Below are positions 128 to 46,377 of a DNA stretch of 46,834 nucleotides, in pieces. The translations under genes and the position numbers were made by a program. How positions within the stretch are numbered: the first letter of the stretch is position 1; every line of letters begins with the position of its first letter. This DNA is from a virus. Taxonomy: Duplodnaviria > Caudoviricetes. The notes beneath the pieces were generated by a model that saw nothing but the letters and a program-made list of their open reading frames with translations, was not told the DNA's origin and ran no database searches. The stretch covers positions 1-46,834 of IMG/VR virus record IMGVR_UViG_3300044296_000119; one strand, written 5' to 3'.

Positions 128-176
128 CCCACATGGGCTTCACTATTCGTGGAGTCTAAACGTTCTTAGGAACAAC

Positions 177-251
177 TCCGAAGTAGCTCAGCGGTAGAGC
201 AAGCGACTGTTAATCGCTAGGTCGGTGGTTCGATCCCACCCTTCGGAGCCA
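177..251 (+). tRNA. tRNA-Asn(GTT)
   Basis: Canonical cloverleaf, anticodon loop CTGTTAA, GGTTCGATCC T-arm, encoded CCA. Confidence 0.93.
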
Positions 252-252
252 T

Positions 253-328
253 GCTGCGTTAGCTCAGTTGGTAGAGCAGCTCCCTTGTAAGGAGAAGGTC
301 GAGGGTTCGATTCCTTCACGCAGCACCA
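253..328 (+). tRNA. tRNA-Thr(TGT)
   Basis: Cloverleaf, anticodon loop CTTGTAA, GGTTCGATTCC T-arm, encoded CCA. Confidence 0.9.
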
Positions 329-360
329 CTGAAATACATTCCCAAGCAGCAGGAGAATGT

Positions 361-1244: not shown

Positions 1245-3763
1245 TAGCCCTGATACTTACTCAAGAATCGCTGGATGTAAGGCAGTGTCTCTTCAGGCTT
1301 AGGCATGAACGCTACCCACTGGTCAGGGATTCCTAGCTTCGTGGCCTTGGCTATGGCCTTCTGCACGTTCCCCATCCCTGCATTGTATCCCGCTGCCACC
1401 TTGTTCATGTCCCCTTTGAACACGTCGTAAAGGCGTGACAGTTCTTTCCCTGCTGCAACCTCAGCTTTCTTGGTGTCACTACGCTCGTCTACCCCTGCTT
1501 TGGGATCAACAACCAAGCCGTGCTCTTTAGCTGTCGCTTCCATGAGTTGGTATTCACCACGCGCTCCTTTAGCTGAGACAGCTAATGGGCCGCTTTTCTC
1601 AGAAAACTTAACTGCTTCCAGAGCTTTAGGCAGGTTGATGGAGGTCTTCTCCGTGTTCTTAGGAACATTGCCACCGTTCGGTGTAGGCAGTGTCTCCCCT
1701 GTCAGCAACGACTGAGGATGCTCAGCCGACAGGTTCAACCCCACCCGTGTCCTTACCTCATCCACATTGAGCTTGTTGTCCAACAGGCGAGCACCCATTG
1801 TGAACACTTCAACCGACTGGTTGATGCGGGTAGCCAGAGCCTGTGCTTGCTTGATTGCATCCCGTCCATCTACGCCTTGGCTGTTCGGGCCACGGCCACC
1901 CATCCCACGAACACCACCCAAGAACGCACCACCACCTGTTTCAGCCGTAGCTGTAGCGGGTTGCTTTTGCGTAGCATCCACTTCAAACAAACCCGTCACC
2001 GGATTCTGCTTGAGCGTCATAGTCCAGCCTGAACGCTTCGTGATGGAGTCGCTGTTAAACGCCTCGATCTGGGCTTTGAGGCTGTCACTCAAACCACGGA
2101 CAGTGGACTCAGCTTGCATAACCAGCGGTGTCAACGCCTGTGCTTTCTCCTGCGGGGAGAGCTTGGCAACAAACGCTTGGAACGTGTCGCTTCCAACCAA
2201 CTCAGACGCCACCTTCAGGTCTTGACTGGTAGGATTGGACAGGTTGAGTGTGCTCCCAAGCTTGGCCATGTTATTCACCCACACAGTCTTACGCTCCTGC
2301 GTAGGCGCACCGTCCTTAGCCCACTCCTTAACGTTCTGAATCATGTCAACGGTGGCAATGGTGGCAAGGTTGCGATCTACCTGTGCCACTGCATTGATGT
2401 CGATGGGTTTACCTAGAGCAATCTGCGCCATGATGCCCGCATGTTGTGCGGGATTCTGTAACACTTGAGCCATTGCATCTGCCAATTGTGCACCTCCACC
2501 TCCGGGGATACGCTTTATGAACTCGTCCCTAGGCACTGTCATATACAACTCAAACAGCTTTGACGGCTGCATACCCAGAATGTTCATTGATTCGATGTAA
2601 GGATTGGCCAGTCGAATGGAGTTATCGAACAACTGAAGGTTGTTCTTGCTGTTCTCTGCCATCTTGAGAAGCATGTTCCGCCCTTCAATGGTTTTGACGC
2701 CTTCCTGCCACGTCTTCACCGTCGCGCGGATTTCACCAACACGCTTGGCAGCAGTGTCAGAACTGAGCGGATTGGTGGGAGATGCACGCATCTGACCAAT
2801 CTCAGCTTCCAGTTGCAAACCAATACTCTCAATCTTGCTGCTGAGTTGCAGTCCAAACTGTGCCGCATCGGCTGCTTTAGCAGGATCGGCATTGAGTGCA
2901 GTGAGTTTGTTCAGGTCTTGGTAGATACCGGCAAGGTGTTTGCCTTGACTGGTAGCAATTGCCTGACTCCACAGTTCGTCCGATTGTTCACGGCCAAGCC
3001 CATCCACCTTCAATTTGTTCTCGATGTTCTTGCGGGCAAACTCAAGCTGCTTAGCTTGGTAGTGCACCTGAAGCATCTGCGGTGTCACTTGATTGGGTAG
3101 CACACCCTGTTCAGCAGCAATCTGCTTGATGGCTTCCAACTGTGCAGCTTGCATCTGCTCAGCTTGCTTCTCTTGTGCACTCTTGGTGGTCAGGGCTTGA
3201 TGCACACCATACACATCCAGTCGATCAATGCCAGTCATATCCGCACCCAACTTGCGGAAATCAGACGCCCATCCCGGCATCATTGCCGAATACTTTTTGA
3301 CCGCTGCACTGACCCTCGTAAGAACTTCGTCACGAGTCATGATGCCTTGACGTTGCGCGTCAGCGTAACGCTTCACATCCTTCATGAAGTCTGCGCTGAT
3401 GGCACCATCATCAAGACCACCACTCTGCTCCTTAAGCATGGCCAACTGTTCAGCAGAGTTGGCAGCAAACTGATCGGAGCCGAGGTAGTCGAGGTTCTTC
3501 TGTGCTTGTGTAGCCTCAGTGCCTGAGCCTTGAAGCTTATCCAAACTCGAATTGATTTCCTTAGCTGCATCAGCTTCGAGCTTTCCCTTGCCAGCAGCAA
3601 TGAGTGATGTTCCTAGGAACGTTGTCATGTCAGCTTTCGCTTGACCTGCAATCTTGATCCCTCGTGCTTGGCTTTCACTGGCAGCAATCAGCGATTCACC
3701 TGCCCCACCTTTAACCGGAGCTTGGATGTCGGGGATTACTTTCGCGTAGTCTGGGCCTGCCAT
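1244..3763 (-). CDS. Internal virion protein with C-terminal lytic transglycosylase domain
   Basis: SAKGARGEYQLM, AGYNAG and ETLPY SLT motifs; position at the end of the virion operon. Confidence 0.8.
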   Translation of the reverse strand: MAGPDYAKVIPDIQAPVKGGAGESLIAASESQARGIKIAGQAKADMTTFLGTSLIAAGKGKLEADAAKEINSSLDKLQGSGTEATQAQKNLDYLGSDQFAANSAEQLAMLKEQSGGLDDGAISADFMKDVKRYADAQRQGIMTRDEVLTRVSAAVKKYSAMMPGWASDFRKLGADMTGIDRLDVYGVHQALTTKSAQEKQAEQMQAAQLEAIKQIAAEQGVLPNQVTPQMLQVHYQAKQLEFARKNIENKLKVDGLGREQSDELWSQAIATSQGKHLAGIYQDLNKLTALNADPAKAADAAQFGLQLSSKIESIGLQLEAEIGQMRASPTNPLSSDTAAKRVGEIRATVKTWQEGVKTIEGRNMLLKMAENSKNNLQLFDNSIRLANPYIESMNILGMQPSKLFELYMTVPRDEFIKRIPGGGGAQLADAMAQVLQNPAQHAGIMAQIALGKPIDINAVAQVDRNLATIATVDMIQNVKEWAKDGAPTQERKTVWVNNMAKLGSTLNLSNPTSQDLKVASELVGSDTFQAFVAKLSPQEKAQALTPLVMQAESTVRGLSDSLKAQIEAFNSDSITKRSGWTMTLKQNPVTGLFEVDATQKQPATATAETGGGAFLGGVRGMGGRGPNSQGVDGRDAIKQAQALATRINQSVEVFTMGARLLDNKLNVDEVRTRVGLNLSAEHPQSLLTGETLPTPNGGNVPKNTEKTSINLPKALEAVKFSEKSGPLAVSAKGARGEYQLMEATAKEHGLVVDPKAGVDERSDTKKAEVAAGKELSRLYDVFKGDMNKVAAGYNAGMGNVQKAIAKATKLGIPDQWVAFMPKPEETLPYIQRFLSKYQG

Positions 3764-6700
3764 TAGTCTTCCTTCTTAGGTTGCGTTACAACGAGGGGCT
3801 GTTTATATGTCTGACCTTTCCAGATATATTCGCCCAACAGCTTTTGCATTTGATTGTCGTAGGGATAGAGTTTCTCCCTGATACGACGCTTAACATCCAT
3901 CAAGTCACCTGTGTTCTCAGGCCACAACACATCGAGCAGCTTGTGTTGTTCATCAGCATATGCGTTGTCACCACGCATACGCGCTGTGATGATGTCCTTT
4001 TGAACTTTGACAATTGTTGATGCAATGTCATCCAAAGCTTCGTTGTGTTCTTTCTTACCTTTAATTAGGTTGGACACATCAATAGCAGCAGTAGGTTGAA
4101 AGCCAAGAGCTTGTCCCAATACTTCCATTGGTGTGAGTTGAGCAACAGCCAACCCTTTACCATCAATCATTTTGTTTTGATATTGCATATACAGATAAGC
4201 TTTAGTTACATTACGTAACGTTGTTACCTGTTCAGTTGTCATACGCGACAACCCTTCCATTACATCTTTGGCTGTCTTGTCAGGGTCACGGTAGAAGAGC
4301 GAAGCCACATCCCCAATGACACCAAGGCGTTTAGCTGTTGCAACACTAGGGCCACCGAGTGCCTCGAACACGTTCTTAGGATCGGTGAAGATTGCATCTG
4401 CTACTTGTTGGTAGTAGTTGAATGAACCCAGTCGAGAGCCTAGTGCGAGGTTGAGGGGCTTGCCCGTCATCCACTCACCAAACTGATTGAGCAATCCAGC
4501 AAGCAACCCTTGACCAAGGTATGCCTTCTGATCGACAGTCATCTTCGACTTCGCATCATCTGAGATCATCTCATCAACCAACCACGCCAAACCATTACCG
4601 GCTGCGCCATAGAGAATGACGTGACCCACCAGAAGCTGCAACGCTTCAACACGGGAGAACGAACGGCCACCGTGGCCAAGCAATGACGCCATGATGTTGG
4701 CACCGAGCTTGATGTTGTATTGTGCAAACTGAAGCGGGATGGATGCCGCACCTTCTTGGAATCGAGCGAGGTTGGCACGAGTCATGTTCTGTGTCAGATC
4801 ATCCATACGCACAACAATCTGGGCCAGTGCTTCTTTAGTGCTCCACTCTGCTCCCTTGTTAGCAGCCATCCATTCCCGGCGAGCTACGTCAAAAGAGACA
4901 AGCCGGGAGAATTCTTCACCACGATTGAAGAAGAATGTGTTCTGTCCAAGCACACGCGCGGGATAACCACCGAAGATGTTAAGCTTCCCATCCTCCAAGT
5001 TGTAGAGCGCAGTTGATTTGAGATTGTCAACAATACCTGTTTGACGAACCGCTTTGACCAGCTTCACAAACTCTTCCTTGCTACCGAAGAGTCCCTTCTC
5101 AACATTACCAAAGAAGTTCCACACTGACGGATTGTCCGACATCAACGCCATACGCAACAGCGGGAATGTCTTAGCCGCAGCCAGCCCATGCAACGGAGAC
5201 AAAATCATGGCAGTAGCTGCACCGTTCGCTTGAACAATGAGCTGCGCCGGATTGAACATACCCAGTGTCAGGTTGAAGTTGATGTTACGAATGAAGCCAA
5301 GCAGCCCCATCTTACGAACGGCAGCACCTGCTGTCTCAACAGTCTCATTACCTGTAAACCACTTCTCCGTCATACGACGTGTCATGGTTTGGTAGTAGCG
5401 TTCCTCTCCTGTCTTCAGTCCGATCTGGCGCATGATGTATTTGTGTGTGCGCTCAGCGAACATTGCCTCCGGTGTCGCCTTAGTAAACGATGCACCAGTT
5501 GCAGAGTAGAAGTCGTTGATGTCATTGCCTGTCCGATTGGGGATCATGTCACCGAACGTATTCATCCAACGGCGCACCATCTGTTCACGCCACTGGTTGA
5601 TGTTGCTTACTCGGCTGACATTTGTAACTTCAGCTTCAATTGATTCAAACACTCCAAGTGTATTAGGCCGAGAAGCATCGACGCTAAAGAGGCGCTCACT
5701 ACGTTTGGATGTGAATAGCCGCCCGTTAGCAAGGGCTTCTCCAACTGAACCATTAAGATATTCTTCTTTGTTTCTTGTGAAGTGGTAGTCGAGCTTTGAC
5801 AATCCATCAAAGTCACCTTTATCAAATGCAGCTTTGAAATCGTCAATGCTGAAGTAGCGACCAACCAGCTTCTCCAGTTCCCGATCACGAGCACCAGCAG
5901 CGCCGATGTTCTTAAGAACACCAACGGCACGAGTGACGTTATCTACAAACTCCTGTGCTTCTCTCACCGACTTGGCAGTGCGGATCGTGGATGTTATTTC
6001 CTCATTGATCCCATCAACCTTGCCTACACGCTTCATGGTGATGAAGTATTCATCTGTGTAGATGCGGCTGTATTCGCCCGGACGGTAGGACAAAGCTGTA
6101 ACAATGTCGCGTGTCTTGGCAGATTCATCTACCAACATGACACGACGCAGCTCCCCATCAATTTCGGTGGGGTGTGCGAGCTGCACAACACGCTTGCCTT
6201 CACCGTAGGCTTTCATGGCAGCCGGACTGTCCCAGTCCACCATTGTTTTAGTGGCTACGTCATAAAGCTGTTTGTTCTTAAGAACACTGGCTTCAACCAT
6301 AGACAGGTCTTTGCCAGCAGCTTTGATGCCATTCACTTCCACTTCCTTTAGCCCCATCGAACGCAGATGTTTAACCATCTCACCGTTACGGATGTGATAC
6401 ATCATCATGCGAAGCTGACGTGTAGCGAGATAAGCTTGCGCTTCGCGCTCGTTCAATCCCTTAGCCATTGCTTCGGAGAAGTTGAACTCCTTACCCAGAC
6501 CACCAGCATTGCTCATGGCATCGCCCTCTTCGAGCAACGCCTGCACTTTACGTGTGCCTTCCTTACCAAGCCCTTTGAAGTAGGGATCAATAAAGGATTG
6601 GAGAGCGTGACGTGTCTTGGCTTCAGCGTGCACACCAACCACACGAGCTTCCACTGCCTGTTCAGACGCAGCGTGCTTAGGGTCGATAGCAACTGTAGCC

Positions 6701-9700
6701 ATGCTGTCAATGTCTTGCTGACTAAACTTACCGATGGAGTCGTAGCTCAACGGATCGTTACGCACCTGCTTAACCAGCCATTCACCCGTAGGGCCGGGGG
6801 CTGTTGGAGTCGGGGGTGCGAGTGATGATCGCAGCAGTTCGATGCGCTTAAGCAAAGCTTCACGCTCAGCATCAGACAAGCCGTCTTTCAACAACTGTCC
6901 TTGAACCTTGCGAATCTCTTTCTCGATAGCTTGTGACATCGGAATGGAGTCCTTCTTCTTGAAGGCCACCTCACTACCGATAGTGTCCGATTGCTTAGCA
7001 GCAACCAACGCATCCCACTCACGCGGGTTGTCCAGATAACTCTTCATCAAATCGCGCACGTAGTCATTCGGCTTGGACACATCCACACCGAGTGCACGGG
7101 CTACTTGAACAAAGAACTCCTTAAGTTTCTGTGCGTGCTGAGCAAACCATTTCTCCAGAGCAGAGACAGGACGTGCATCTGTCAGCATGAACTTGGCAAA
7201 GTTTTCTGCCCAAAACTCACCGGCCGATCTATACCAAGATGTGTCCAAACCAAGCGACGTGGCTTCACGCGCCGGGAAATCGAACGCCGGTGCCGGGAAT
7301 CCTTTACGCAACTCATCATCGACAGGAACACGGAACAGTGTTTTAAACTGATCCCATGTAATGTCGCTGTTCATTCGCGCCTTATACCAATTCTTAAATT
7401 CATTGAAGAGGTCTTGTCGGATTTGCTGAGGTGCAGCAAGCAGCACTTCTTTCTCGAACGCATGACCAATCTCATGTGCCAGAGTGCTGACTTGTTTGCG
7501 AAAGCTACCGCTCAGTGAAGCGTCCCATACAATGAGATGGAACTTACCGACAGTGCTATTGACGCGCGTATAAAACCCATTGTTACTACCCGAACGGACG
7601 TAGCTCATCATTCGGTTGTAGTCGTCAATGTTGGCATTCAATCGCTTGAGCATATAAGGCAGCTCGTTCGATGACACGATGGCCATGCGTTGCTTACCGA
7701 AACGCAGGAGGTTGAGCCAATCACCAACCAAGCCTCTGATCTTGGGGTGAAGCTGATCGCCCATCTCCAAGTTGCGGCCAATGAACATAGGCTCGCCACG
7801 CGAGAACGGCGTTTGGGCTGTCGATTGATTGCGAACCTGATTGTCAATGAGCTTGCGCTCAATGGGTGTAGCTGCACTCTCAGCACCGTCTAGCTTGTTA
7901 AAGAACACCTCACCATCAATCTCGACGGGAGCTTCTTCAACAACTGTGCCTGCTTTGTTCTCTACAGCACGAGCGCCTTTGAACTTGGCATCCTTACCAC
8001 TGAACAGCATGTGCTCAGGGCCAGTGCCGTGCGGCCCACTGTGGCTGGCGTAGTTGCCGACAACCCCTTCCTTACGGAGAGCAGCAGCAGCTTTCTCTTC
8101 ACTGCCAAGCTTCTTAACCGCAGCACGATAGATGTCCTCGCCAGTCATACCAGCGACGTCTTTACCCAACACCTTGGATGCAGCCTTGGCTACTTCAGCA
8201 GGCTGGCTAGTCTCATACCAGTGGAGGAACTTGTTGTCTTCGGGGATCGACCACTTGCTAACCGTGTGGCCATACTTCTGAGCAAACGTATCAGCCAGTC
8301 CCTCAGCCTTGGACATGTAAAACCCTTTGCCCAATGCCGAACCACCTTGACCCGAACCGATGAACGAATCATCCAGTTTGCCGGTAGTTGTCCCACCGTG
8401 GTATGCAACCTGCGGTTGAACATCATCAATGATGTTCTTAGGAACAATCTCGAAGTTGGTTAGACCTTGCTCTTTGGCCCACTGCTCTGCCGCTTCACGC
8501 GACATGAAGGCACGGCCTTGCTTGCTCTGCCAGAACACAGTCATCTGCTGACCATCAGCAGACGCTTCACCGAAGATGACGTCGGCTACGTGTGGGTTGT
8601 TGGACGGAGCGTAGCTCTGTCTGATCTTGGCAGCCGCATCCTTAATTTCTTCCGGGGTCATACCCGATGAAGACAGACGCTCACGGAAGTTGTCGAGCAT
8701 CTTGTTCCAGCCGTCTACCAGTTCCTTCTGAGCAGCAGCATTCATGCCACGCAGGGCAGCAGGATCGGCGGTGAACGGATTGCCACCACTGGCGATGACA
8801 CGGCTAACCAGCTCAGCGTCGTTCAGACCTGAAAGCTTGGTTTGGTTGATGAGATCGGCAGCAGCAACCTTGCCTGCCTCTGTCTCACCAACTACATCCT
8901 TAACCGCTTTAAGCGGAACGCCCTTACGAGCCAGCGAGCCAAGCCCTTTGACAAGTGCGTAGACATCTGTGGCTTGCATTGCATCGAGAGCAAAGTCGAG
9001 GTTGGCATCCGACTTACTCAGCTCAAGCACTTGGCGAAGAACGTCGGCTTTGACTGCCGGATTGTCTGCAAGGTCTTTGACCAGATCACCCATCACGCGC
9101 TGACGCTCAGATGGATGCATACCCGACAGCATGTAACGCAGATCGGTTACGGCTGCGTATTTGTCGAGGTAGCGATTGGTGCCTGTTTGTTTGGAGATCG
9201 CATTGGTGATGGAGAGGGTGTCCCAATATGGAATCAGACTACGACCAAACTGAGAGATGTAGTCCCAGAGGTGGGCCTTGTCAGACTCCTCACCCGCTGC
9301 CTGAGCAATCATGTTACGGGTGGCAATGGCACCAGCCGCTTTGTCGAGGATGCCAGTAAAGGCAATCGTGTCTCGATAGAGTTTGGTTGTGTCTGTATTG
9401 GCCGACACACCTTCGAGTGCACGCTGAGCCAGCGCATCCTGCGCTTCAACCGGGTTGTCTACCGGGTTCTTCAGCGTCTTGTCAGCCTCGTTAGTGGCCA
9501 GCACTTGAGCTGCAAACCCAGTCCGTTCTGTTTCCCCTGCCGCAGCAAAGGCTTCAGCTTGTGCACGCGCAGCACGCACGTTGTCCTCGAAGTGCTGTGA
9601 CAGCACCTGCGATAGCAACGGAGTTGTTCCGTTGGCTTTGATGGCTGTGACGTTTTGAGCCAGCTTGTCCTTGAATGGACGAGTGTCTTCAATTGCCAGA

Positions 9701-9834
9701 GCTACTTGAGCCGCAACTTCTTCAACGTTCCTAGGAACACGCGCAGCCGGAACATCATCCGGCTGCGGGAGAAACGTTTGAACTTCAGGAGGAGTTTGAA
9801 CTTCAGGCAGTAACGAGGGAGCCTGATCTGTCAT
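3763..9834 (-). CDS. Large internal (ejected) virion protein, 2023 aa, with ART-like and HExxH domains
   Basis: Size and synteny; YHGG...G.GFY.S and LAHEIGH...EFWAE motifs. Confidence 0.75.
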   Translation of the reverse strand: MTDQAPSLLPEVQTPPEVQTFLPQPDDVPAARVPRNVEEVAAQVALAIEDTRPFKDKLAQNVTAIKANGTTPLLSQVLSQHFEDNVRAARAQAEAFAAAGETERTGFAAQVLATNEADKTLKNPVDNPVEAQDALAQRALEGVSANTDTTKLYRDTIAFTGILDKAAGAIATRNMIAQAAGEESDKAHLWDYISQFGRSLIPYWDTLSITNAISKQTGTNRYLDKYAAVTDLRYMLSGMHPSERQRVMGDLVKDLADNPAVKADVLRQVLELSKSDANLDFALDAMQATDVYALVKGLGSLARKGVPLKAVKDVVGETEAGKVAAADLINQTKLSGLNDAELVSRVIASGGNPFTADPAALRGMNAAAQKELVDGWNKMLDNFRERLSSSGMTPEEIKDAAAKIRQSYAPSNNPHVADVIFGEASADGQQMTVFWQSKQGRAFMSREAAEQWAKEQGLTNFEIVPKNIIDDVQPQVAYHGGTTTGKLDDSFIGSGQGGSALGKGFYMSKAEGLADTFAQKYGHTVSKWSIPEDNKFLHWYETSQPAEVAKAASKVLGKDVAGMTGEDIYRAAVKKLGSEEKAAAALRKEGVVGNYASHSGPHGTGPEHMLFSGKDAKFKGARAVENKAGTVVEEAPVEIDGEVFFNKLDGAESAATPIERKLIDNQVRNQSTAQTPFSRGEPMFIGRNLEMGDQLHPKIRGLVGDWLNLLRFGKQRMAIVSSNELPYMLKRLNANIDDYNRMMSYVRSGSNNGFYTRVNSTVGKFHLIVWDASLSGSFRKQVSTLAHEIGHAFEKEVLLAAPQQIRQDLFNEFKNWYKARMNSDITWDQFKTLFRVPVDDELRKGFPAPAFDFPAREATSLGLDTSWYRSAGEFWAENFAKFMLTDARPVSALEKWFAQHAQKLKEFFVQVARALGVDVSKPNDYVRDLMKSYLDNPREWDALVAAKQSDTIGSEVAFKKKDSIPMSQAIEKEIRKVQGQLLKDGLSDAEREALLKRIELLRSSLAPPTPTAPGPTGEWLVKQVRNDPLSYDSIGKFSQQDIDSMATVAIDPKHAASEQAVEARVVGVHAEAKTRHALQSFIDPYFKGLGKEGTRKVQALLEEGDAMSNAGGLGKEFNFSEAMAKGLNEREAQAYLATRQLRMMMYHIRNGEMVKHLRSMGLKEVEVNGIKAAGKDLSMVEASVLKNKQLYDVATKTMVDWDSPAAMKAYGEGKRVVQLAHPTEIDGELRRVMLVDESAKTRDIVTALSYRPGEYSRIYTDEYFITMKRVGKVDGINEEITSTIRTAKSVREAQEFVDNVTRAVGVLKNIGAAGARDRELEKLVGRYFSIDDFKAAFDKGDFDGLSKLDYHFTRNKEEYLNGSVGEALANGRLFTSKRSERLFSVDASRPNTLGVFESIEAEVTNVSRVSNINQWREQMVRRWMNTFGDMIPNRTGNDINDFYSATGASFTKATPEAMFAERTHKYIMRQIGLKTGEERYYQTMTRRMTEKWFTGNETVETAGAAVRKMGLLGFIRNINFNLTLGMFNPAQLIVQANGAATAMILSPLHGLAAAKTFPLLRMALMSDNPSVWNFFGNVEKGLFGSKEEFVKLVKAVRQTGIVDNLKSTALYNLEDGKLNIFGGYPARVLGQNTFFFNRGEEFSRLVSFDVARREWMAANKGAEWSTKEALAQIVVRMDDLTQNMTRANLARFQEGAASIPLQFAQYNIKLGANIMASLLGHGGRSFSRVEALQLLVGHVILYGAAGNGLAWLVDEMISDDAKSKMTVDQKAYLGQGLLAGLLNQFGEWMTGKPLNLALGSRLGSFNYYQQVADAIFTDPKNVFEALGGPSVATAKRLGVIGDVASLFYRDPDKTAKDVMEGLSRMTTEQVTTLRNVTKAYLYMQYQNKMIDGKGLAVAQLTPMEVLGQALGFQPTAAIDVSNLIKGKKEHNEALDDIASTIVKVQKDIITARMRGDNAYADEQHKLLDVLWPENTGDLMDVKRRIREKLYPYDNQMQKLLGEYIWKGQTYKQPLVVTQPKKED

Positions 9835-15989: not shown

Positions 15990-16043
15990 TGTTACTTCCT
16001 ACCCTTATTATTTTTGTTGTCGTAGGATTGAACCGGGATGTTC

Positions 16044-29348: not shown

Positions 29349-29720
29349 ATGCTTGCACCAGTCAAGAAACATTCGGACGAACGTGCCGAACATCTGCGCC
29401 GCCTCGCTGATCGCAAGGCACAGACGCAGCGCCTCACTGCCAAGCACAAGCTACGGTTTGTGCATGTCCGTCATCGTGATGACAACCTCGATAAGACACC
29501 GCACGCCGGGGCAACGATTGCCTATTCATTCCCCTCCCCAACTGGCGATCTGATTCGGGTGGGTGTGGCGTTGTGCCACAAGAATGATCGTTACTGCCGT
29601 GCCGATGGCCGCTTCAATGCTGCCCTGCACTTCGACATGGGTGACACCGTGTTGATCCGTGTTCCTAAGAACATGGTGCCGAGCGATCTGATTCAACGCA
29701 TGTTCTTCCACGTAGCGTAA
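29349..29720 (+). CDS. Hypothetical protein (paralogue of 31108-31458)
   Basis: AAGGAG RBS. Confidence 0.75.
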   Translation: MLAPVKKHSDERAEHLRRLADRKAQTQRLTAKHKLRFVHVRHRDDNLDKTPHAGATIAYSFPSPTGDLIRVGVALCHKNDRYCRADGRFNAALHFDMGDTVLIRVPKNMVPSDLIQRMFFHVA

Positions 29721-33803: not shown

Positions 33804-33838
33804 ATCATGTTCCTAGGAACACACAACAAGAGGACAGT

Positions 33839-35157: not shown

Positions 35158-35362
35158 ACTTGCGGAACTTACTGGTGTAGAGAAGAAGAAGCCACTGCAA
35201 ATAGAGTGGCTGAAGAATAACAACTTCCCCTACACCATCAAGCACACGGGGGAAATCAATGTGCTGCGTGCTCTCGTTGAACAGAGACACGGGATGTCAT
35301 CGGCTGTTCCTAAGAACACCGATGCTCCCAACCTTGGTGCCTTTCCCAAACGGAGAAACTGA
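35138..35362 (+). CDS. Excisionase-like protein (DUF4224 type)
   Basis: MFLS..EL.ELTG......Q..WL......Y.....G...V and PNL tail; upstream of the integrase. Confidence 0.75.
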   Translation: MFLSPHELAELTGVEKKKPLQIEWLKNNNFPYTIKHTGEINVLRALVEQRHGMSSAVPKNTDAPNLGAFPKRRN

Positions 35363-35526: not shown

Positions 35527-36490
35527 GCGGGTCTACTGGAAGAACGGTGCATTCCACTACGTTGACAAGAGCAACAAGTGGCACCGCTTAGGTGAGCACT
35601 GGGACAGGGGTGCACGAGAGAAATGGGCTTCCCTCTCCACCCTTGCTCCCGGTGCAGGCACTGTTGCCCAGATGTTGGACAACTACCTCGACTACCTCCG
35701 TGCTGAGAAAGCACGGGGTGCAATGAGTGCACGTCACGTTGAAGATAGAGAGCGTGACGCTGCCATGCTGAACAGAATGTTCGGCAAGATGGACAAGCTG
35801 AAGGTGCGACGTGAACATGTCGCCCTATATCTAAAGAACAGGACGGACAAAGATGGCAACCATGCGCCAGTCAGGGCCAACAGAGAAGTGAGTTTACTAA
35901 GTGCTGCCTTCAATCGGGACGTCACTGTTGACGTCAATCCCTGTCTCGGCGTTCCTAGGAACAAAGAACATGGAAGAGAGCGTTACGTCGAAGGGTGGGA
36001 GCTGCGAAGGTTTGCCAAGCGATGCTGTCCCCCTTGGCTCCGTGGATATATTCTCATCAAATACCTCACCGGGTTACGTATGGCTGACATGCTTAGGCTG
36101 CACGATCCGGCTGAAGGTGAGCGAGGACTTGTCGTCCGAATCGGTAAGAGTAGAAAGCGTAAGGTTTTGGAATTCAGATGGACATGGGCGTTACGAACCG
36201 CAGTTGGATTCGTTCGTAATGTTAGGCACGGACAAGCTGGCGGAGTTGCACCAGACCTACGACCACTCTTCGGGATTACCCCATCGGGCCTTAAAAGTGC
36301 ATGGCGTAGAGCCTGCGCCAAGTGGGCCGCACAGGGGAATACTCCGTTCTGGGAGCATGACATTCGAGGCAAAACCGGAAGCGACTCTAAGACACTCACC
36401 GATGCACAGCATCGACTGGGACACGATAGGTCTACTACCACCGCTCGGCATTACCGACGAGGTGTTAGTAAAGTCGATAGCCTCAGATAA
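35480..36490 (+). CDS. int: Tyrosine integrase
   Basis: TGLR.ADML, HDIR, LGH and HY catalytic residues. Confidence 0.9.
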   Translation: MTMGKRAPLSSQHPAERVYWKNGAFHYVDKSNKWHRLGEHWDRGAREKWASLSTLAPGAGTVAQMLDNYLDYLRAEKARGAMSARHVEDRERDAAMLNRMFGKMDKLKVRREHVALYLKNRTDKDGNHAPVRANREVSLLSAAFNRDVTVDVNPCLGVPRNKEHGRERYVEGWELRRFAKRCCPPWLRGYILIKYLTGLRMADMLRLHDPAEGERGLVVRIGKSRKRKVLEFRWTWALRTAVGFVRNVRHGQAGGVAPDLRPLFGITPSGLKSAWRRACAKWAAQGNTPFWEHDIRGKTGSDSKTLTDAQHRLGHDRSTTTARHYRRGVSKVDSLR

Positions 36491-37319: not shown

Positions 37320-37320
37320 G

Positions 37321-37480
37321 TGTTAGACACCTACTCTGTTTGTTAGACAGGTAGGTGGCCGACACTACGTAAGTTGTTGATTGTTGGCGGAGTGGACGGG
37401 ACTCGAACCCGCGACCCCCGGCGTGACAGTCCGAGCGTTTGTCCTTTGTTCCTAGGAACTTACGTCCATTCTGTCTAACA
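37321..37480. mobile_element. attP region with tRNA-Asp 3'-half core (37385-37429, minus strand)
   Basis: Reverse complement CTGTCACGCCGGGGGTCGCGGGTTCGAGTCCCGTCCACTCCGCCA; TGTTAGACA at 37321 and 37341 and inverted at 37472; IHF consensus AATCAACAACTTA at 37370-37382. Confidence 0.85.
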
Positions 37481-38623: not shown

Positions 38624-39880
38624 TTGGATTTGGATTTACTGGCATTGCTCAAGAGCAAGGCTACGTTCCAGCGATTCAAACCTTACATTAAGGAACATGT
38701 CCTAGCTAAAGAAACACAACTCATCATCAACACAATGGACGCCTACTTCAAGGCGTTCCCTGCTGTCACCGATCTGGATTGGTCGGCGTTTGAATCCTAC
38801 TTCTTCGTTCTTAGGAACGCTCAAGTTAGGAAAGAAACTGCCCCCAACTACCGCATCGTGTTCGACAAGCTGAAGACATACAGCCCCTCGGTTGCAGCCG
38901 AGAATGTGCTGGAACATTTCGTAACACAAGACTACGCCCACCGTATAGCAGACGCTGCCCTCCGTGTGAAGGAAGGTGATGCCACCATTGACGATGTTCA
39001 CGAGCTAGTCAAGCAACACGACAAAGAACTCAATCGTGCCATCAATACCAGTGACCTATTTGTTATGGGTGGTATTGCTGGTGCTATCGCTGATGTCAAT
39101 GCACCCGGACTTGAATGGCGACTGGAAGAACTGAACGTTGCCCTTGGCCCGCTGCGTAAGGGTGACTTCGTTCTTGTCGCAGCCTACGTTGAGACAGGTA
39201 AGACAACGTTTGCTGCATCTGAGGTCAGTCACATGGCCACCCAGATTAAGGACGACAGGCCCGTTGTCTGGATTAATAACGAGGAACGTAGCGACAAGGT
39301 GAAGCTACGGATTGTGCAAGCTGCCCTTGGTCTAACCAACAAGGACATCTGTGCCGATCTGAAGAAGGCGGAAGCTGACTACGAGAAACTGATGGGCAAT
39401 CCCAATCGGATTCTTGTGCAGCTCAACGACATCTCGATGAACAACGCACAGAAGCTGACGCCTCTGTTCCGTGATTTGAACCCTGCCCTGATTGTGTTCG
39501 ATCAGTTGGACAAGGTGGGTGGGTTTCAGAACAGGGACGAAGGTGAACACGTTAGGTTGGGCAAGCTATACAAGTGGGCACGAGACTTGAGCCATGAATA
39601 TTGCCCTGTCATTGCGCTGTCGCAGTGTGATGCCAGTGCCGAGGGTTCGCAATACATTCACCTGAATCAGCTACGTGGTTCCAAAGTGGACAAACCGGGT
39701 GAGGTGGATGCCTGCATCACCATTGGCAAGAGCCACGATCCGGCATTGATGAACACCCGTTACCTTCATGTTCCTAAGAACAAGCTAACTGGTGGCCCAC
39801 GTAGTGAAGAGAAAGAACGACATGGCTACTTCGAGGTGCAGATAAAGCCGGAGATTGCAAGGTATGAAGGAACCAGATGA
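38624..39880 (+). CDS. DnaB-like replicative helicase
   Basis: ETGKT Walker A, NEE, VFDQLDK, SQ, KNK. Confidence 0.85.
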   Translation: MDLDLLALLKSKATFQRFKPYIKEHVLAKETQLIINTMDAYFKAFPAVTDLDWSAFESYFFVLRNAQVRKETAPNYRIVFDKLKTYSPSVAAENVLEHFVTQDYAHRIADAALRVKEGDATIDDVHELVKQHDKELNRAINTSDLFVMGGIAGAIADVNAPGLEWRLEELNVALGPLRKGDFVLVAAYVETGKTTFAASEVSHMATQIKDDRPVVWINNEERSDKVKLRIVQAALGLTNKDICADLKKAEADYEKLMGNPNRILVQLNDISMNNAQKLTPLFRDLNPALIVFDQLDKVGGFQNRDEGEHVRLGKLYKWARDLSHEYCPVIALSQCDASAEGSQYIHLNQLRGSKVDKPGEVDACITIGKSHDPALMNTRYLHVPKNKLTGGPRSEEKERHGYFEVQIKPEIARYEGTR

Positions 39881-41876
39881 CGCAGTAGCACTGGTGGTTG
39901 ATGTTGAAACCACTATGAAATGCCCAGTGGGTAACAACAAAGCCAACCCGTTCTGGCCTGAGAACAAGATAGTGCTGTTAGGTATTCGCCGCATCTTAGG
40001 TGGGACAGCGGTTGGTGCCTATGCCGCACCTCGTCCAGAAACCAAGTTTGCCAGTGACAATCGGCTGCTCATTGGACACAACATTGCATTTGATCTGTTT
40101 TACCTACTCAATGGTGGGCACATCACAAAGGACAGGCTAGCAACCTGCACCGTTTGGGACACGCAACTTGCTGAATATCTATTAAGTGGACAGCAGGATA
40201 AGTTTCCCTCGCTTGATGAAGTGGTGAAGAAGCGTGGTGTTGGCACACTCAAAGATACCCGTGTGTCTGACATGTTCAAGGCAGGCATGGGTGCTGATGA
40301 AGTTCCAGCCGACATGCTGAAGGACTATCTGAAAGCCGATGTTGAGAACACTGAGTTGGTGTTTTGGTCGCAGTATGCCGAGGCACAAGAGAATGGGATG
40401 CTGCCACTGATTCTGTCACAGATGGATGCACGTATGGCAACCATTGAGATGATTTGGAATGGACTGGCCGTTGACAAGAAGTTCCTAACCGATGGCATTG
40501 ATCGACTGAACAAACAATACAATGAGTTGACGACAGAATTGGGGACACACATGCTGATGCAGACAGGCATACCCTTGTCCCCTACCAGCGGTAAGGACTT
40601 GTCGTTGTTCCTGTTTGGCGGTGACTTCACTTACACCGAACGTGAGTGCATTGGCAAATACAAGAACGGCAAGGACAAGTTCAAGAACGTAGAGAAGTCA
40701 CGGCGTATTCCCATGATGTTCACTCCGTTGGATTCATGGAAACAATCACGAGGCTACTCAACTGACGACAAGGTGCTCGATCACATTGCCAACTTCACAA
40801 CCGATCCTGCATTAGTTCAGTTTTGTTGGAAGCTGCAAGAACTGCGTGATGTGAGCAAGCAACTGTCTACGTATTACGAGGGCATCGACAAGCTCATCAT
40901 GCCTGATGGCTTGGTGCACCACGACTTGAATCACTGTGTCACTGTGACTGGCCGACTGAGTTCGTCCAATCCCAACTTGCAGAACGTCACTGATGGTGCG
41001 AAGGGAGACATTAAGAAAGCGTTTGTGTCTCGCTTCGGTGATGCTGGTGTGGTGTGTGAAGCCGACTACAGCCAGCTAGAGATGGTGATGCTGGCCGTGT
41101 TGAGCGGTGACACGCAACTCATCGAGGACATTCGCACTGGCACTGACATGCACAAGGCGCTGTTTAAGGCGCTGTATGGCAGGGAGATGAAGCCGGAGGA
41201 ACGCAAGAAGTTTAAGCGTTGCAGCTTTGCCTTGGTGTATGGAGCAGGTGCTAAGGGTATATCGGAGCAGAGCGGCCTATCAGTTGATGACGCACGTAAG
41301 TTTATCCGTGTCTTCTATGACCGCTATCCCGGTGTGAAGCAATGGCACGACGCTGTGTATGAAGCAGTGAAGGCAGGCCGTGAATACAAGGGACGCAAAG
41401 ACCCTGACACCAGCCTTCCGATGGGTGACTCCGTGTATGTCAGCCCGTTCAGCCAACGGCGCTTTGTGTTCCATGAGTATCCGAATAGTCCAGAGGTTCA
41501 GAAGTGGAAGGGAACTGTGTCTTCGTTCTCTCCCACTGAAACTAAAAACTATCCGGTGCAAGGCGGAGCGACAGGAGACATTGTGCCGCTGGTTCTGGGC
41601 AAGCTCTATCGTGTTCTTAGGAACAACCCTCGCCTCAAAGACAAGTGCCTCATGATTAATACAGTGCATGACAGTGTGATGTTCGACATACATAAAGACG
41701 TGTTGGACGAAGCACTCGTCGTCATTAAGCAAACTATGGAAAGTGCGCCACAGCTAATTAAAGAAACGTTCGACTTCACGTTCCCTCTCAAGCTCAACGT
41801 TGGTGTGAGCTGTGGGCCTACGTGGTTCGATCAAACCGAAATTGATTTCAGTTATTACGATAAGGAAGCAGCATGA
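39864..41876 (+). CDS. polA: Family A DNA polymerase with 3'-5' exonuclease
   Basis: DVET, HNIAFD, TGRLSS..PNLQN, DYSQLE, R...K...F...YG, NYPVQ, VHDS. Confidence 0.92.
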   Translation: MKEPDDAVALVVDVETTMKCPVGNNKANPFWPENKIVLLGIRRILGGTAVGAYAAPRPETKFASDNRLLIGHNIAFDLFYLLNGGHITKDRLATCTVWDTQLAEYLLSGQQDKFPSLDEVVKKRGVGTLKDTRVSDMFKAGMGADEVPADMLKDYLKADVENTELVFWSQYAEAQENGMLPLILSQMDARMATIEMIWNGLAVDKKFLTDGIDRLNKQYNELTTELGTHMLMQTGIPLSPTSGKDLSLFLFGGDFTYTERECIGKYKNGKDKFKNVEKSRRIPMMFTPLDSWKQSRGYSTDDKVLDHIANFTTDPALVQFCWKLQELRDVSKQLSTYYEGIDKLIMPDGLVHHDLNHCVTVTGRLSSSNPNLQNVTDGAKGDIKKAFVSRFGDAGVVCEADYSQLEMVMLAVLSGDTQLIEDIRTGTDMHKALFKALYGREMKPEERKKFKRCSFALVYGAGAKGISEQSGLSVDDARKFIRVFYDRYPGVKQWHDAVYEAVKAGREYKGRKDPDTSLPMGDSVYVSPFSQRRFVFHEYPNSPEVQKWKGTVSSFSPTETKNYPVQGGATGDIVPLVLGKLYRVLRNNPRLKDKCLMINTVHDSVMFDIHKDVLDEALVVIKQTMESAPQLIKETFDFTFPLKLNVGVSCGPTWFDQTEIDFSYYDKEAA

Positions 41877-42471: not shown

Positions 42472-43397
42472 CTAAAACAATCGACACCCTTGTTGATGAC
42501 ATTCAACAGTTGTTCACGGACACACTCAGTGGCAAGTCTGCTGAGTTTGACGTGGACAATCTGTCGCGGTTCAGCGTGAACATGGCCAACCATGTCATGC
42601 AAGACCTCACTGCACGGCACAACAAACGCAAACCTAAGACGCTCTACATGAGTGAGATTGGTAAGCCTTGTGTCCGTCAGGTGTGGTATGGCGTGAACAA
42701 GCCGGAGCTTGGTGAGAAGATGGAAGGACACACCCTTCTCAAGTTTCTTTATGGCGATTGCGTGGAAGAACTGGTGCTGATGCTTGCGGAGCAGGCAGGG
42801 CACAAGGTGGAGAAACGCCAAGAGCGTAAGGAATGGGACTTGGGCGATGGCTGGAAAGTCAGTGGTCGCATTGACGCCGTCATTGACGGGGTGTTGGTTG
42901 ATGTAAAGAGCTGTTCCCCCTACGCCTTCGACAAGTTTAAAGACGGACTCACTGATGCGAACGACAGCTTTGGCTACCGTGCTCAGCTTGCTGGCTACAA
43001 CCTAGACGACAAGTATAAGCGCATGGGTTTTCTTGCTGTTGACAAACAGAACGGACGCATCGGCTTCTTTGAATTGCCTTTGGGTGAAGGGATGGAAGCG
43101 TCTAGTAAGATGATTGCTGTCCGTAATGCCTGTTCATCAAGCGGCAAGCCGGTGCGCCACTTCGAGCTGGTGCCTGAAGGCAAGAGCGGGAACATGAAGC
43201 TTTGCACTGAGTGTTCCTACTGTCCTTATAAGTGGGACTGCTGGAAGGATGCCAACGATGGGAAGGGGCTGCGAGCCTTTGCCTACTCAACTGGCCCGGT
43301 GTTCCTAGGAACAGTGGCTAAAGAACCGAAGGTGCCTGAACTACATCCGAAACGTAAGACGGAGGTAGTTGAGGATGACATCATCACGGCCACTTAA
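42468..43397 (+). CDS. Cas4-like PD-(D/E)XK exonuclease
   Basis: S.IGKPC.RQ.WY, G.ID...DVKS, Q..GY, C.YC.Y...CW. Confidence 0.8.
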   Translation: MTKTIDTLVDDIQQLFTDTLSGKSAEFDVDNLSRFSVNMANHVMQDLTARHNKRKPKTLYMSEIGKPCVRQVWYGVNKPELGEKMEGHTLLKFLYGDCVEELVLMLAEQAGHKVEKRQERKEWDLGDGWKVSGRIDAVIDGVLVDVKSCSPYAFDKFKDGLTDANDSFGYRAQLAGYNLDDKYKRMGFLAVDKQNGRIGFFELPLGEGMEASSKMIAVRNACSSSGKPVRHFELVPEGKSGNMKLCTECSYCPYKWDCWKDANDGKGLRAFAYSTGPVFLGTVAKEPKVPELHPKRKTEVVEDDIITAT

Positions 43398-44217
43398 CGT
43401 TCTAGTTGTTGGCGATGCACACGTTGACGAGGATCAGAACCTTGATCGGTTCCTAGCCCTCGGCAACAAGATCAGGATAGAGAAGCCTGACTACGTAATC
43501 ATCATCGGGGATTTCTTGTCGCTCAATTGTCTCAGTGAATGGGATAAGAATAAACGCAAGAAGATGGAGAACAAGCGGTATAAGCTAGAGATTGAGGCCG
43601 GTAACGCAGCCCTCAACATGATGGGACTGGACGGTTCACAAGACTGTGAAGTGATCTACGTCGAGGGCAACCATGAAGATCGGTTGACTCGCTACCTCAA
43701 TCAAGACCCCACGTTTGAGGACACGGTTTCAATTCCAAAAGACTTGAAACTGGTAGAGCGCGACATCACATGGGTTCGATATAAGGATGTGTTTACCATC
43801 AATGGTGTGTCGTTCACACACATCCCCATCAACTCGGCTGGTAAAGCCATTGGCAATCCCAACGTAGCACAAAAAGCATTGCGGTTGTTCTCCAACTCTG
43901 TAGTGTTTGGACACACCCACACGCTGGACACGTCGGCTGAGCATCGCCACGGTGCTGCACATCTCAATCAAGCGTTGGCTGTTGGTTGTTTCTTTGAGCA
44001 TGTCGATGACTACGCCAAGGGAAGCATGACCAACTACTGGCGTGGTGTTGTTGACCTAGTGATATACGACACCAATCGCTTTGACTTCTCAACCCAGTCG
44101 ATGCGTCAGCTCTACAACGAGTATGGGGTAAAGCGCGGTATACCTTCAACTAAACTGAAAGTATCCCGCCATGCGGTTGCAAGAACTGAAAGACGTAGCA
44201 TCCCGTCAAGCCGATGA
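43375..44217 (+). CDS. Calcineurin-like metallophosphoesterase
   Basis: GDAH, GD, GNHE, GHTH. Confidence 0.85.
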   Translation: MTSSRPLNVLVVGDAHVDEDQNLDRFLALGNKIRIEKPDYVIIIGDFLSLNCLSEWDKNKRKKMENKRYKLEIEAGNAALNMMGLDGSQDCEVIYVEGNHEDRLTRYLNQDPTFEDTVSIPKDLKLVERDITWVRYKDVFTINGVSFTHIPINSAGKAIGNPNVAQKALRLFSNSVVFGHTHTLDTSAEHRHGAAHLNQALAVGCFFEHVDDYAKGSMTNYWRGVVDLVIYDTNRFDFSTQSMRQLYNEYGVKRGIPSTKLKVSRHAVARTERRSIPSSR

Positions 44218-44329
44218 ACACGAGCTGGTTGACCTGCTCGAACTCACTGTTGATGACATCCTAGATCGGTTTGCTGACCGACTCCTTGAATTCAAGGAAC
44301 GGTTTGGTGTTGTCGATCCTGATGACTAA
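44171..44329 (+). CDS. Hypothetical acidic protein (52 aa)
   Basis: DE..LVDLLEL..DDI.DRF.D pattern; fills the gap between genes. Confidence 0.55.
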   Translation: MRLQELKDVASRQADEHELVDLLELTVDDILDRFADRLLEFKERFGVVDPDD

Positions 44330-44693
44330 ACGCAACGGTGGGTTGTGGACAGAGTCTCGCTTCAAGTCGTTCGTCATTAGCAAGCTGCGGGCCGGTCTAA
44401 GGTGGTGGCCTCCGAAGTTTCGTGTTCTTAAGAACGCTGCAACGGAGCGCCGCATCAACCCCAAGTCCGGCAAGCTTGCCATGCACTATCGCTGCGCTAA
44501 ATGCAAAGGCGAGTTCCCACTCAAAGAAGTCCAAGTCGATCACAAGCAACCTGTCGTTGACACCAAGACTGGCTTCGTCAGTTGGGATGTCTACGTCGAA
44601 CGCATGTTCGTTGAAGACAAAGCACTACAGGTCTTGTGCAAACCATGCCACAAAAATAAAAGCGACAAAGAAAGAGCGCAACGACGTGGATAA
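44322..44693 (+). CDS. HNH endonuclease
   Basis: Y.CAKC, VQVDH..P, LQVLC..CH..K. Confidence 0.8.
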   Translation: MTKRNGGLWTESRFKSFVISKLRAGLRWWPPKFRVLKNAATERRINPKSGKLAMHYRCAKCKGEFPLKEVQVDHKQPVVDTKTGFVSWDVYVERMFVEDKALQVLCKPCHKNKSDKERAQRRG

Positions 44694-46377
44694 AAGTCGT
44701 TTCAAGACCCCATTTGCCGAACACATCTTCAAACAAAAGTATGCACTGAGTCCTGCTGACAGTTGGGACAACCTTGCACACCGAGTTGTTGATGATGTGT
44801 GTGGCACACGAGGCGGCACCGAAGCTCCGCTGATGAGTAAAGAGGACAGGCAACAGCTTGTTCAATTTATCGCAGAGATGAAGTTTATTCCCGGTGGCCG
44901 TTACCTCTACTACGCTGGTCGTCCATTCAAGGCATACAACAACTGCTATCTGTTGAAGTGTGAAGAAGACACGAGGGAAGAATGGTCGGCTGTCACGCAA
45001 CGTGCAATGGCCTGTCTCATGACGGGCGGAGGTATAGGAATTGATTACTCTGTTCTGCGTCCTAGTGGGCGTCTTCTTGGTAGGACTGGGGGTAAGGCTA
45101 GTGGCCCGCTCCCGCTCATGTCCACCATCAACGAAGTCGGACGAAACGTCATGCAAGGAGGTTCGCGTCGTTCGGCCATTTACGCATCGCTACACTGGCA
45201 ACATGAGGACGCGCCGGAATTCCTCGTTGCGAAGAACTGGCACAACAAAAAGATAGGCGACGCAACCAAGCGTATTGTTGGCATTGGTGCACAAGACTAC
45301 ACGTTGTGGGATGCAAAGCAGGCAGACTTCAACTTCCCTGCCCCGCTGGACATGACCAACATTTCGCTGAACTACGACGATGCGTTCTTAGGAACGCCCG
45401 ATCACCCAACGTTCATTGCCAATGTGCGACAGGCAATGATGACAGGGGAGCCGGGGTTCAGCTTCAACTTTGGAGACAAGCAGAATGAAACTCTACGAAA
45501 CGCCTGCACTGAAGTTTGCAGCGCAGATGACAGCGATGTTTGCAACTTGGGTTCTGTCAATCTCGGAAACATTGACACAATTCAGGAACTTCAGTCGGTT
45601 GTCGAACTCGCCTCCAAGTTCCTTGTCTGCGGAACTGTCCGAGCTGACCTCCCCTACGATAAGGTCAAGCGAGTCAGAGAAAAGAACCGACGACTCGGCC
45701 TAGGCTTGATGGGAATGCACGAGTGGTTGTTGAAGAGAGGGCACAAGTATGAAGTCACTACCGAACTCCACCGTTGGTTGGCTGTATATAGGGACAGCAG
45801 TGAACGCGCTGCTAACGAGCATTGTGACCGCTTGTTTCTTTCACATCCTGTCGCATACCGAGCCATTGCTCCAACAGGAAGTATTGGTATTCTGGCCTCT
45901 ACTACAACTGGTATCGAGCCTCTCTTTGCTGTCGCTTACAAGCGTCGTTACCTCAAGGATGGGACGCGATGGCACTACGAATATGTAGTGGATGCGACAG
46001 CCGATCACATCATCAAAGAGTTTGGTGTGAAGCCGGAAGCAATTGAGACAGCCAAAGCGTTGTCATCCGATCCAGAACGTCGAATCAAATTCCAAGCTGA
46101 TGTGCAGGACTACGTGGACATGTCCATTAGTTCGACTATCAACCTGCCTCAATGGGGCAGTAAGGAAAACAATGAGAGCCTTGTTCCTAAGTTTGCAGGT
46201 GTGCTTGCTCATTACGCTCCTCGCCTCCGTGGGTTCACATGCTACCCCGATGGCAGCCGTGGTGGACAACCCATCACTGAGGTTGCGTATCAAGAAGCAA
46301 TGAAACACAAAGGAGTTGTGTTTGAGGAGAACGACGTGTGCCTCATCACAGGAAAGGGAGGGACGTGTGGAAGCTAG
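44686..46377 (+). CDS. nrdJ: Class II (B12-dependent) ribonucleotide reductase
   Basis: PGGR, NNC, GGG.G, RRSA, NACTE, CNLG, APTG, C-terminal Cys pair; no beta subunit seen; GTG 44686 is the likely start. Confidence 0.8.
   Translation: MDKSRFKTPFAEHIFKQKYALSPADSWDNLAHRVVDDVCGTRGGTEAPLMSKEDRQQLVQFIAEMKFIPGGRYLYYAGRPFKAYNNCYLLKCEEDTREEWSAVTQRAMACLMTGGGIGIDYSVLRPSGRLLGRTGGKASGPLPLMSTINEVGRNVMQGGSRRSAIYASLHWQHEDAPEFLVAKNWHNKKIGDATKRIVGIGAQDYTLWDAKQADFNFPAPLDMTNISLNYDDAFLGTPDHPTFIANVRQAMMTGEPGFSFNFGDKQNETLRNACTEVCSADDSDVCNLGSVNLGNIDTIQELQSVVELASKFLVCGTVRADLPYDKVKRVREKNRRLGLGLMGMHEWLLKRGHKYEVTTELHRWLAVYRDSSERAANEHCDRLFLSHPVAYRAIAPTGSIGILASTTTGIEPLFAVAYKRRYLKDGTRWHYEYVVDATADHIIKEFGVKPEAIETAKALSSDPERRIKFQADVQDYVDMSISSTINLPQWGSKENNESLVPKFAGVLAHYAPRLRGFTCYPDGSRGGQPITEVAYQEAMKHKGVVFEENDVCLITGKGGTCGS

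Follow-up and report, generated by a model that had tools for sequence, protein, structure and literature searches.

The window analysed here, a viral DNA of 46,834 nt (positions 1 to 46,834 of IMG/VR record IMGVR_UViG_3300044296_000119), carries 31 exact copies of the palindromic motif GTTCYTARGAAC, which span positions 162-45395. These copies form an even, genome-wide grid that may well consist of docking sites for e175/e162, which represent a new family of early phage proteins and would cover the viral chromosome; this reading as a whole is regarded as evenly poised. Its components are of unequal strength. The grid is real and clade-wide, dispersed dyads being known but unexplained in phages and the candidate binder family being new. 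That it is bound by a phage-encoded dimeric protein appears quite probable, and coverage of the genome, rather than promoter control, is given an even chance of being its main role.

The counts of a preliminary description of this DNA were all reproduced: 31 copies, with the cores CCTAGG (13 sites), CTTAGG (eight), CCTAAG (five) and CTTAAG (five), extended to the 14-mer YGTTCYTARGAACR at 27 sites, and placed inside genes at 21 sites, over stop codons at two and in non-coding DNA at eight. The wording "31 perfect copies" stands for exact matches to the motif but not for symmetry, as only 18 of the 31 are perfect palindromes and the other 13 join two different half-sites. The consensus of 12-14 bp is symmetric, with half-sites of 6-7 bp, no spacer and a fixed YTAR centre, in agreement with the dimer-type site suggested earlier. 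Near-miss copies are scarce, with four at two mismatches and two at one mismatch, and the presence of only two one-mismatch copies points to a strict reader; these two, at 4372..4383 in the large internal virion gene and at 24743..24754 within the largest inter-site gap, are possible decayed sites.

Selection on DNA, and not on protein, is evident from the codon tests, which bear out what had been claimed from the sequence. Dinucleotide shuffles contained no copies in 100 of 100 cases, and synonymous-codon resampling with the proteins held fixed (2000 runs) gave a mean of 0.39 and a maximum of four copies, against 22 hits in coding sequences (one site is counted twice, in two overlapping open reading frames, ORFs). 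The intragenic sites are read as V-P/L-K/R-N in 15 cases and as F-L-G/R-T in six. Among genes longer than 300 nt, V[PL][KR]N peptides are encoded as the motif in 12 of 12 cases, where codon use predicts 0.26, and the peptide itself is about 20-fold commoner than amino-acid composition predicts; these proteins have thus been made to accommodate a DNA site, and a protein-level cause of the motif is ruled out. In effect, the phage alters the sequences of its own proteins, those of the virion and those of replication, so that a mark in the DNA is preserved. A hairpin or cruciform role was also rejected, as the 20-mers fold weakly as DNA (-1.1 to -6.3 kcal/mol, at 7 of the 31 sites), and the symmetry of 13 copies is imperfect.

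The spacing of the sites is more regular than expected, with a coefficient of variation of the gaps of 0.63 against 0.96 under random placement (P=0.005 linear, 0.003 circular), and 8 of the 11 relatives tested also show spacing more even than chance. No 10.5-bp helical phasing was detected among the 31 sites (P about 0.58). Sites occur in both arms, and the proposal of whole-genome marking holds. Along the virion arm, the first site (162..173; no strand is assigned to any site) lies 3 nt ahead of tRNA-Asn. The gene of the SLT-domain internal virion protein contains sites at 1655..1666 (VPKN, with the aligned site retained in record G004) and 3609..3620 (FLGT, at the same codon in four of five relatives with 29-42% protein identity), and the large internal virion gene contains those at 5908..5919 (VLKN), 6274..6285 (VLKN), 8434..8445 (VPKN) and 9727..9738 (VPRN). 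These are followed by sites in the tail adaptor gene (13677..13688, FLRT, retained in five of seven relatives), over the putative scaffold gene's stop codon, directly preceding the major capsid gene (16040..16051), in an 83-aa gene (17113..17124, VLKN), between terminase and portal with the portal start 3 nt away (19007..19018), in a 156-aa gene (21052..21063, VPRN) and in a tail-fibre-like gene (25661..25672, FLGT). Non-coding sites are found at the head of the late arm (25983..25994), between the divergent arms (26270..26281) and in the early leader (27073..27084). In the early arm, one site begins 30 nt ahead of the gene for the 162-aa candidate binder (27596..27607), another covers the stop codon of an early gene of 72 aa (28434..28445), and others lie in early genes of 123 aa (29661..29672, VPKN) and 178 aa (30362..30373, VPKN), in the CobT-like gene (32288..32299, FLGT), between CobT and CobS (33809..33820), and in the genes for excisionase (35306..35317, VPKN) and integrase (35951..35962, VPRN, retained in three of four relatives). 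A non-coding site (37448..37459) lies 18 nt from the core of the putative phage attachment site (attP), and the remaining sites fall in the genes for helicase (38807..38818, VLRN; 39770..39781, VPKN, the latter retained in five of seven relatives, two of them with a variant motif), DNA polymerase A (41613..41624, VLRN), a Cas4-like exonuclease (43301..43312, FLGT), HNH (44424..44435, VLKN) and ribonucleotide reductase (45384..45395, FLGT).

A broad group of uncultured relatives bears such a grid, with a site roughly every 1.5-2 kb. The motif was counted in 29 records picked for holding the 14-mer or a capsid homologue. Exact copies number 6-27 in 11 records, three within 8.6 kb in one record, and one to three in eight, and they are absent from nine; several low-count records bear variants instead, namely GTTCCYRGGAAC in G006, G[YT]TMYTARKA[RA]C in G023 and G024, and GYYCYTARGRRC in G027. 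A CobS profile recovered 351 relatives, 80 of which were analysed, leaving 46 loci after those shorter than 11 kb were dropped, and 45 of these 46 carry a 12-bp variant at a -log10 P of at least 7. The motif search gave one codon-periodicity artefact, in G016. The remaining CobS locus, L282, carries an 8-bp core, TAYTARTA, 13 times against 1.1 expected. The variants sort by phage clade, as expected of a phage-encoded reader; five or more motif classes are distinguished, and to each belongs a separate version of the candidate protein. Among 33 capsid-relative loci of at least 10 kb, two in the positive clade score high and one comes from G006; the other 30 all score below 7, and none of the 30 capsid-gene relatives outside the clade carries a motif variant.

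The gene content of these relatives indicates which part of the genome the grid accompanies. Records G008, G023 and G024 have quite different virion genes and keep the grid, and G013-G019 have the capsid family of the window without it, which shows that the grid travels with the early module; it tracks the early/replication module, and neither the virion genes nor the integrase nor the HNH nuclease. The block e175-CobT-CobS-primase-helicase-PolA, followed by a 170-aa protein, is common to all grid genomes. A profile built from four sequences found no integrase homologue in G008, G023, G024, G026, G027 and G028, which are 97-100% complete and all carry the grid. The comparison with related phages and their gene content that the preliminary description had proposed thus yielded a clade-wide grid correlated with the early module. 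A second kind of repeated palindrome, lying mostly in the early/replication arm, was observed in G013 (L227-L229), G027 (L224-L226) and QDWS535 (L336), where GTAGTCTRYAGACTAC occurs 14 times, TTCTAA-N4-TTAGAA about 10 times and TCCTAAYRTTAGGA 10 times; these resemble ordinary operators, and G027 bears both kinds. Other dyads are present in the distant capsid relatives L139, L143, L134 and L152, including TAGG-N8-CCTA (seven in 10 kb), AGCT-N5-AGCT and GTTC-N8-GAAC.

The persistence of sites in orthologues, also proposed for examination earlier, differs among the relatives, with aligned codons shared in some and positions turning over slowly between clades. In-gene sites fall at the aligned codon in 13 of 15 cases for G001, 12 of 16 for G004, 9 of 13 for G009 and 6 of 13 for G002, and they hold their place in proteins that are just 29-70% identical. 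Codon-level sharing drops to 0 of 11 in G006, 1 of 13 in G026 and 0 of 5 in G008, yet 10-26 sites are kept elsewhere in these genomes. Single sites are under purifying selection, and in the long term the genomes preserve coverage rather than the place of each site.

The best candidate for the binder, although not a result, is a pair of paralogous early proteins, e162 (162 aa, 27626..28114, + strand) and e175 (175 aa, 31468..31995, + strand, directly upstream of CobT), towards which the sequence comparisons incline us slightly. The family comprises stand-alone proteins of 145-185 aa in 656 clusters at 50% identity, with no match in Pfam, PHROGs or PDB sequences. No relative was found by tblastn of e175 and the homologue of a relative against GenBank phages, nor by Foldseek of the e175 model against PDB, and the matches in BFVD and Atlas were uncharacterised phage proteins only; an Atlas lead to DUF3102 was discarded since its score (0.82) is of a level often reached by chance. 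The e175 model is all-helical apart from one small hairpin (predicted local distance difference test, pLDDT, 81). Conserved across the family are a P-x-x-W-R-S-A-K-S helix and a G-K motif, and the most conserved basic residues are K76 and K99 (52 of 52 each) and R73 (50 of 52). The two exceptions at R73, both T, match G027 and L282, whose motifs are relaxed; G008, which is outside that alignment, has S at this position and keeps the exact motif. For e162, a homodimer was modelled with a score of 0.70 against 0.00 for the best of three controls, pLDDT of at least 89 and at least 99% of contacts shared between runs; true homodimers passed the mark in 20 of 30 cases and monomers in 1 of 23. R73, K76 and K99 are absent from the named interface residues of this model, and no solved complex like it was found by sequence or Foldseek. 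Since the family is large, has no named relative and shows no fold match, it may represent a new sequence-specific DNA-binding fold.

The distribution of e175 follows that of the motif. The protein is present in 40 of the 46 CobS loci, and the six misses end no more than 3.3 kb upstream of CobS. Among 54 e175 loci of at least 10 kb, most of which belong to one clade, 52 carry a motif variant and the other two score 6.0 and 6.7, below the cut of 7. In the nine GenBank records examined, among them ICP2, CRP-810 (first 50 kb) and 4E8 (in part), neither e175 nor the motif family was found. The NWTAYTARTAWN clade, which has the most divergent motif, shows a very long e175 branch (4.85) together with ordinary CobS and helicase branches. 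Within this clade (L267, L276, L295 and kin), a site is conserved at +249 inside the candidate binder gene.

Several observations weigh against e175/e162 and against a strictly even grid. The candidate resembles no known DNA-binding fold in PDB sequences, Foldseek, BFVD or Atlas, and its net charge is near neutral. In all 54 sufficiently long loci e175 occurs with CobT, and because it never occurs without CobT, linkage cannot separate it from its neighbours. The correlation between motif distance and protein distance is higher for e175 (Spearman 0.70) than for its neighbours (0.33-0.49), but it falls below them once the NWTAYTARTAWN clade is removed (0.59 against 0.64-0.75); as it hangs on one divergent clade and reverses without it, this correlation was rejected as support for e175. 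Upstream of the e175 gene, no site is conserved at a constant distance. In addition, the spacing in G006, G026 and G028 is not more even than chance, and many loci are near-identical relatives, so that the distribution counts are not independent.

In the proposed explanation, e175/e162, among the first genes encoded, would dimerise as predicted and coat the DNA every 1.5-2 kb in lytic growth, each subunit reading one GTTCYT half-site. The R-S-A-K helix, which is near-invariant, and the G-K motif would probably make the contact with DNA. The purpose would be coverage, by which incoming and replicating DNA could be organised and marked as self, with local repression wherever a site sits at a gene start. 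Coverage in lytic growth is preferred to a lysogeny switch because of the symmetry of the sites, their intragenic location, their presence in both arms, their even spacing, a turnover that keeps density, and their independence of integration.

A more speculative extension, which we hold to be doubtful, is that the e175/e162 dimer acts as adaptor or client of a CobT (vWA)-CobS (AAA+) motor that pulls in, remodels or clears marked DNA. Such a partner is suggested by the fixed neighbourhood that the vWA protein and the AAA+ ATPase form: the CobT-like vWA protein (31929..33803, + strand) is linked to the binder gene clade-wide, as is the CobS-like AAA+ ATPase (AAA_5, CbbQ_C; 33839..34951, + strand), and both are possible motor partners. 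If true, this would be a three-part machine combining a new DNA-binding fold with a DNA-directed role for phage CobST pairs, now seen as vitamin B12 helpers. In the accessible part of PMC8651126, the phage CobS/CobT pair is viewed as a helper of cobalamin synthesis, with no tie to DNA sites. The ICP2 phage of Zobellviridae resembles the window in its CobT/CobS pair and two-arm genome plan and has CobT-CobS-primase-helicase-PolA in the same order, but it lacks the e175 gene and the grid; CobT and CobS are likewise present without e175 and the motif family in the first 50 kb of CRP-810. The ICP2 repeat GGNCC-N4-GGNCC was rejected as a grid, since it is restricted to tail-fibre genes at 24.5-25.6 kb and reads as Gly-Pro-X repeats.

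The main rival is that the sites are stoperator-like road-blocks or operators, with the binder, perhaps e175/e162 itself, as the missing repressor that silences or times transcription genome-wide. Its standing as main rival comes from the 10 of 31 sites at gene boundaries, some of them 3-30 nt ahead of start codons, and from the site density of long early genes, which is about 1.4-2.5 times that of long late genes in six of eight genomes. In one clade a site also holds a fixed place within the binder gene, and the window has an integrase, an excisionase and a putative attP, yet a scan of 50 ORFs against Pfam and PHROGs gave no match to any repressor family. However, the six near-complete grid relatives named above have no detectable integrase, and positions turn over between clades. 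Known stoperators, those of Cluster A, are described in PMC9283540 as intergenic 13-mers that lack symmetry, point in the direction of transcription and are recognised by a helix-turn-helix monomer, whereas the grid is symmetric and 21 of its 31 sites are intragenic. The stoperator analogy raised earlier is thereby weakened, and we consider road-blocks unlikely.

The grid could instead be read by another protein of the module, such as the N-terminal part of CobT, the 170-aa protein after PolA, the primase or the helicase, for example at replication loading or restart sites. Co-occurrence of these proteins with the motif is as tight as that of e175, their gene trees are congruent with the motif classes, and once the divergent clade is left out, motif distance tracks them more closely than it tracks e175. 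However, ICP2 has CobT, CobS, primase, helicase and PolA in order with neither grid nor e175, and T7-type primase sites are short and strand-specific rather than 12-bp dyads, which counts against the primase; a reader of this kind seems rather improbable. Somewhat less credible again is the recruitment of a host protein, either of LexA type or a nucleoid or segregation protein. The 14-mer fits TGTTC-N4-GAACA, which would correspond to the Verrucomicrobia LexA box, and the outer arms agree with it. Nevertheless, the free spacer, promoter location and host of matching phylum of a LexA box were not found here: the central four bases are fixed as YTAR, the outer arms vary with phage clade, most sites are intragenic, and the putative attP best matches proteobacterial DNA (Ralstonia 96-98%, Legionella 96%). 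The motif was absent from two secondary replicons of betaproteobacteria (3.5 Mb), a weak test since these replicons are not those of the host. A study of the Verrucomicrobia LexA motif is cited in PMC8565304, the accessible part of which does not print the consensus.

Least probable, and very unlikely in our estimate, is that a phage nuclease, such as that of the HNH gene (44271-44693), uses the sites as programmed targets for nicking or recombination. In an initial set of 26 genomes, only nine had the HNH family, all of them with the exact motif, but the GenBank phages CVT22, 4E8 (40 of 76 kb) and MW202697 have HNH at 52-57% identity and no grid, G006, G023 and G024 have a variant grid without this HNH, and 53 of the 54 e175 loci, which are partial, have no HNH match, so that the HNH nuclease is ruled out as reader and the earlier nicking proposal is rejected. 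Packaging or ejection signals, also suggested earlier, are made less likely by the tie of the grid to the early module rather than to the genes for capsid and terminase. Integrase arm sites were rejected as well, since the repeat found on both sides of the putative attP is a different one and some genomes have the grid but no integrase; the TGTTAGACA-like repeats around attP may themselves be the integrase arm sites.

The window, which has a 127-nt terminal overlap, is a complete phage record. Judged by gene plan and not by formal taxonomy, the carrier is an ICP2-like (Zobellviridae-type) podophage with an integrase, having a two-arm genome, a T7-like portal and terminase, PolA and no RNA polymerase; the closest cultured polymerases are those of ICP2-like Vibrio phages (37%). 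The left arm encodes the virion genes (terminase, portal, capsid, tail and internal proteins), and the right arm small early genes, CobT, CobS, excisionase, integrase, primase, helicase, PolA, Cas4-like exonuclease, HNH and ribonucleotide reductase. The putative attP core (37385..37429, - strand), outside the grid, is the 3' part of a tRNA gene that we take to be of Asp identity, and its matches to Ralstonia and Legionella DNA make a proteobacterial host plausible. No prophage with host flanks was found in genome contigs (two loci, both resembling stray phage contigs in metagenome-assembled genomes) or in metagenome contigs (one locus). The integrase is separated from the putative attP by a short insert (36568-37330, with a 192-aa ORF and small genes) that differs in style and is not present in relatives. 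Genes for tRNA-Asn, tRNA-Thr and tRNA-Met lie at 177-328 (+) and 16863-16937 (-), the first starting 3 nt past a grid site. Amid the early genes, ARAGORN called a tRNA with anticodon TTA, which would decode the ochre stop, at 28131-28203 (+); since its anticodon loop looks non-canonical, it may be a tRNA-like decoy or pseudogene. The early leader (26820-27560, about 750 nt) has no convincing genes and several short inverted repeats, and could contain either a non-coding RNA or the end of the genome. GTAC is absent from the window, against about 128 expected, and 32 of the 64 six-base palindromes are missing; as relatives retain 94-261 GTAC, its loss is attributed to recent restriction avoidance.

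Among known systems, the organising or partition sites suggested in the preliminary description survive best, although the reader would be a phage protein of no known family and not ParB, MatP or SlmA. No ParB/KorB domain was found in the 50 ORFs with Pfam or PHROGs or for the e175 model with Foldseek, and the motif G-[EHN]-R-R-x-x-A, a ParB signature, is absent from all window ORFs of at least 40 aa. Literature searches on Zobellviridae repeats and phage CobS/CobT found nothing on this grid, and those on the motif strings in phages or on even palindromic sites within coding regions returned none, subscription papers and supplements being largely outside their reach. KorB of plasmid RK2 is described in PMC11790492 as a CTPase sliding clamp with 16-bp OB operators, whose dimer acts at a distance. 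The KorB-OB and ParB-parS systems thus share with the grid palindromic dimer sites far from promoters, the dimer here being a predicted candidate; unlike KorB and ParB, this candidate is a helical protein of about 160 aa without a match to KorB. The Cluster A stoperators of the L5-type repressor, which lie at promoters and in short gaps between genes and stop transcription elongation when bound, are alike in that more than 20 sites of one phage protein occur genome-wide, and differ from the grid in its symmetric consensus, intragenic majority, lack of a repressor family and persistence without integrase. The closest published case is that of the 17-bp dyad repeats of Cluster O mycobacteriophages (Corndog; see also PMC6439249), of which the accessible text of PMC4351075 reports more than 30 near-invariant copies inside and between genes and mostly off promoters, proposed as sites of a dimeric protein with no function or binder named there. 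Both systems have about 30 near-invariant dyads genome-wide, in and between genes, and the arms of both begin with TGTTC. However, the Cluster O dyads have 7-bp arms and a loose 3-bp centre and cluster at the right end of an unrelated siphovirus, whereas those of the present podophage are 12-14 bp long, have no spacer and a fixed YTAR, and are evenly spaced. Dispersed phage dyad repeats have been a puzzle, without binder or function, since Cluster O; for the grid described here there is a candidate family with clade-specific variants, and these natural variants, in at least five motif classes, permit cross-binding tests of protein-site pairing without the host.

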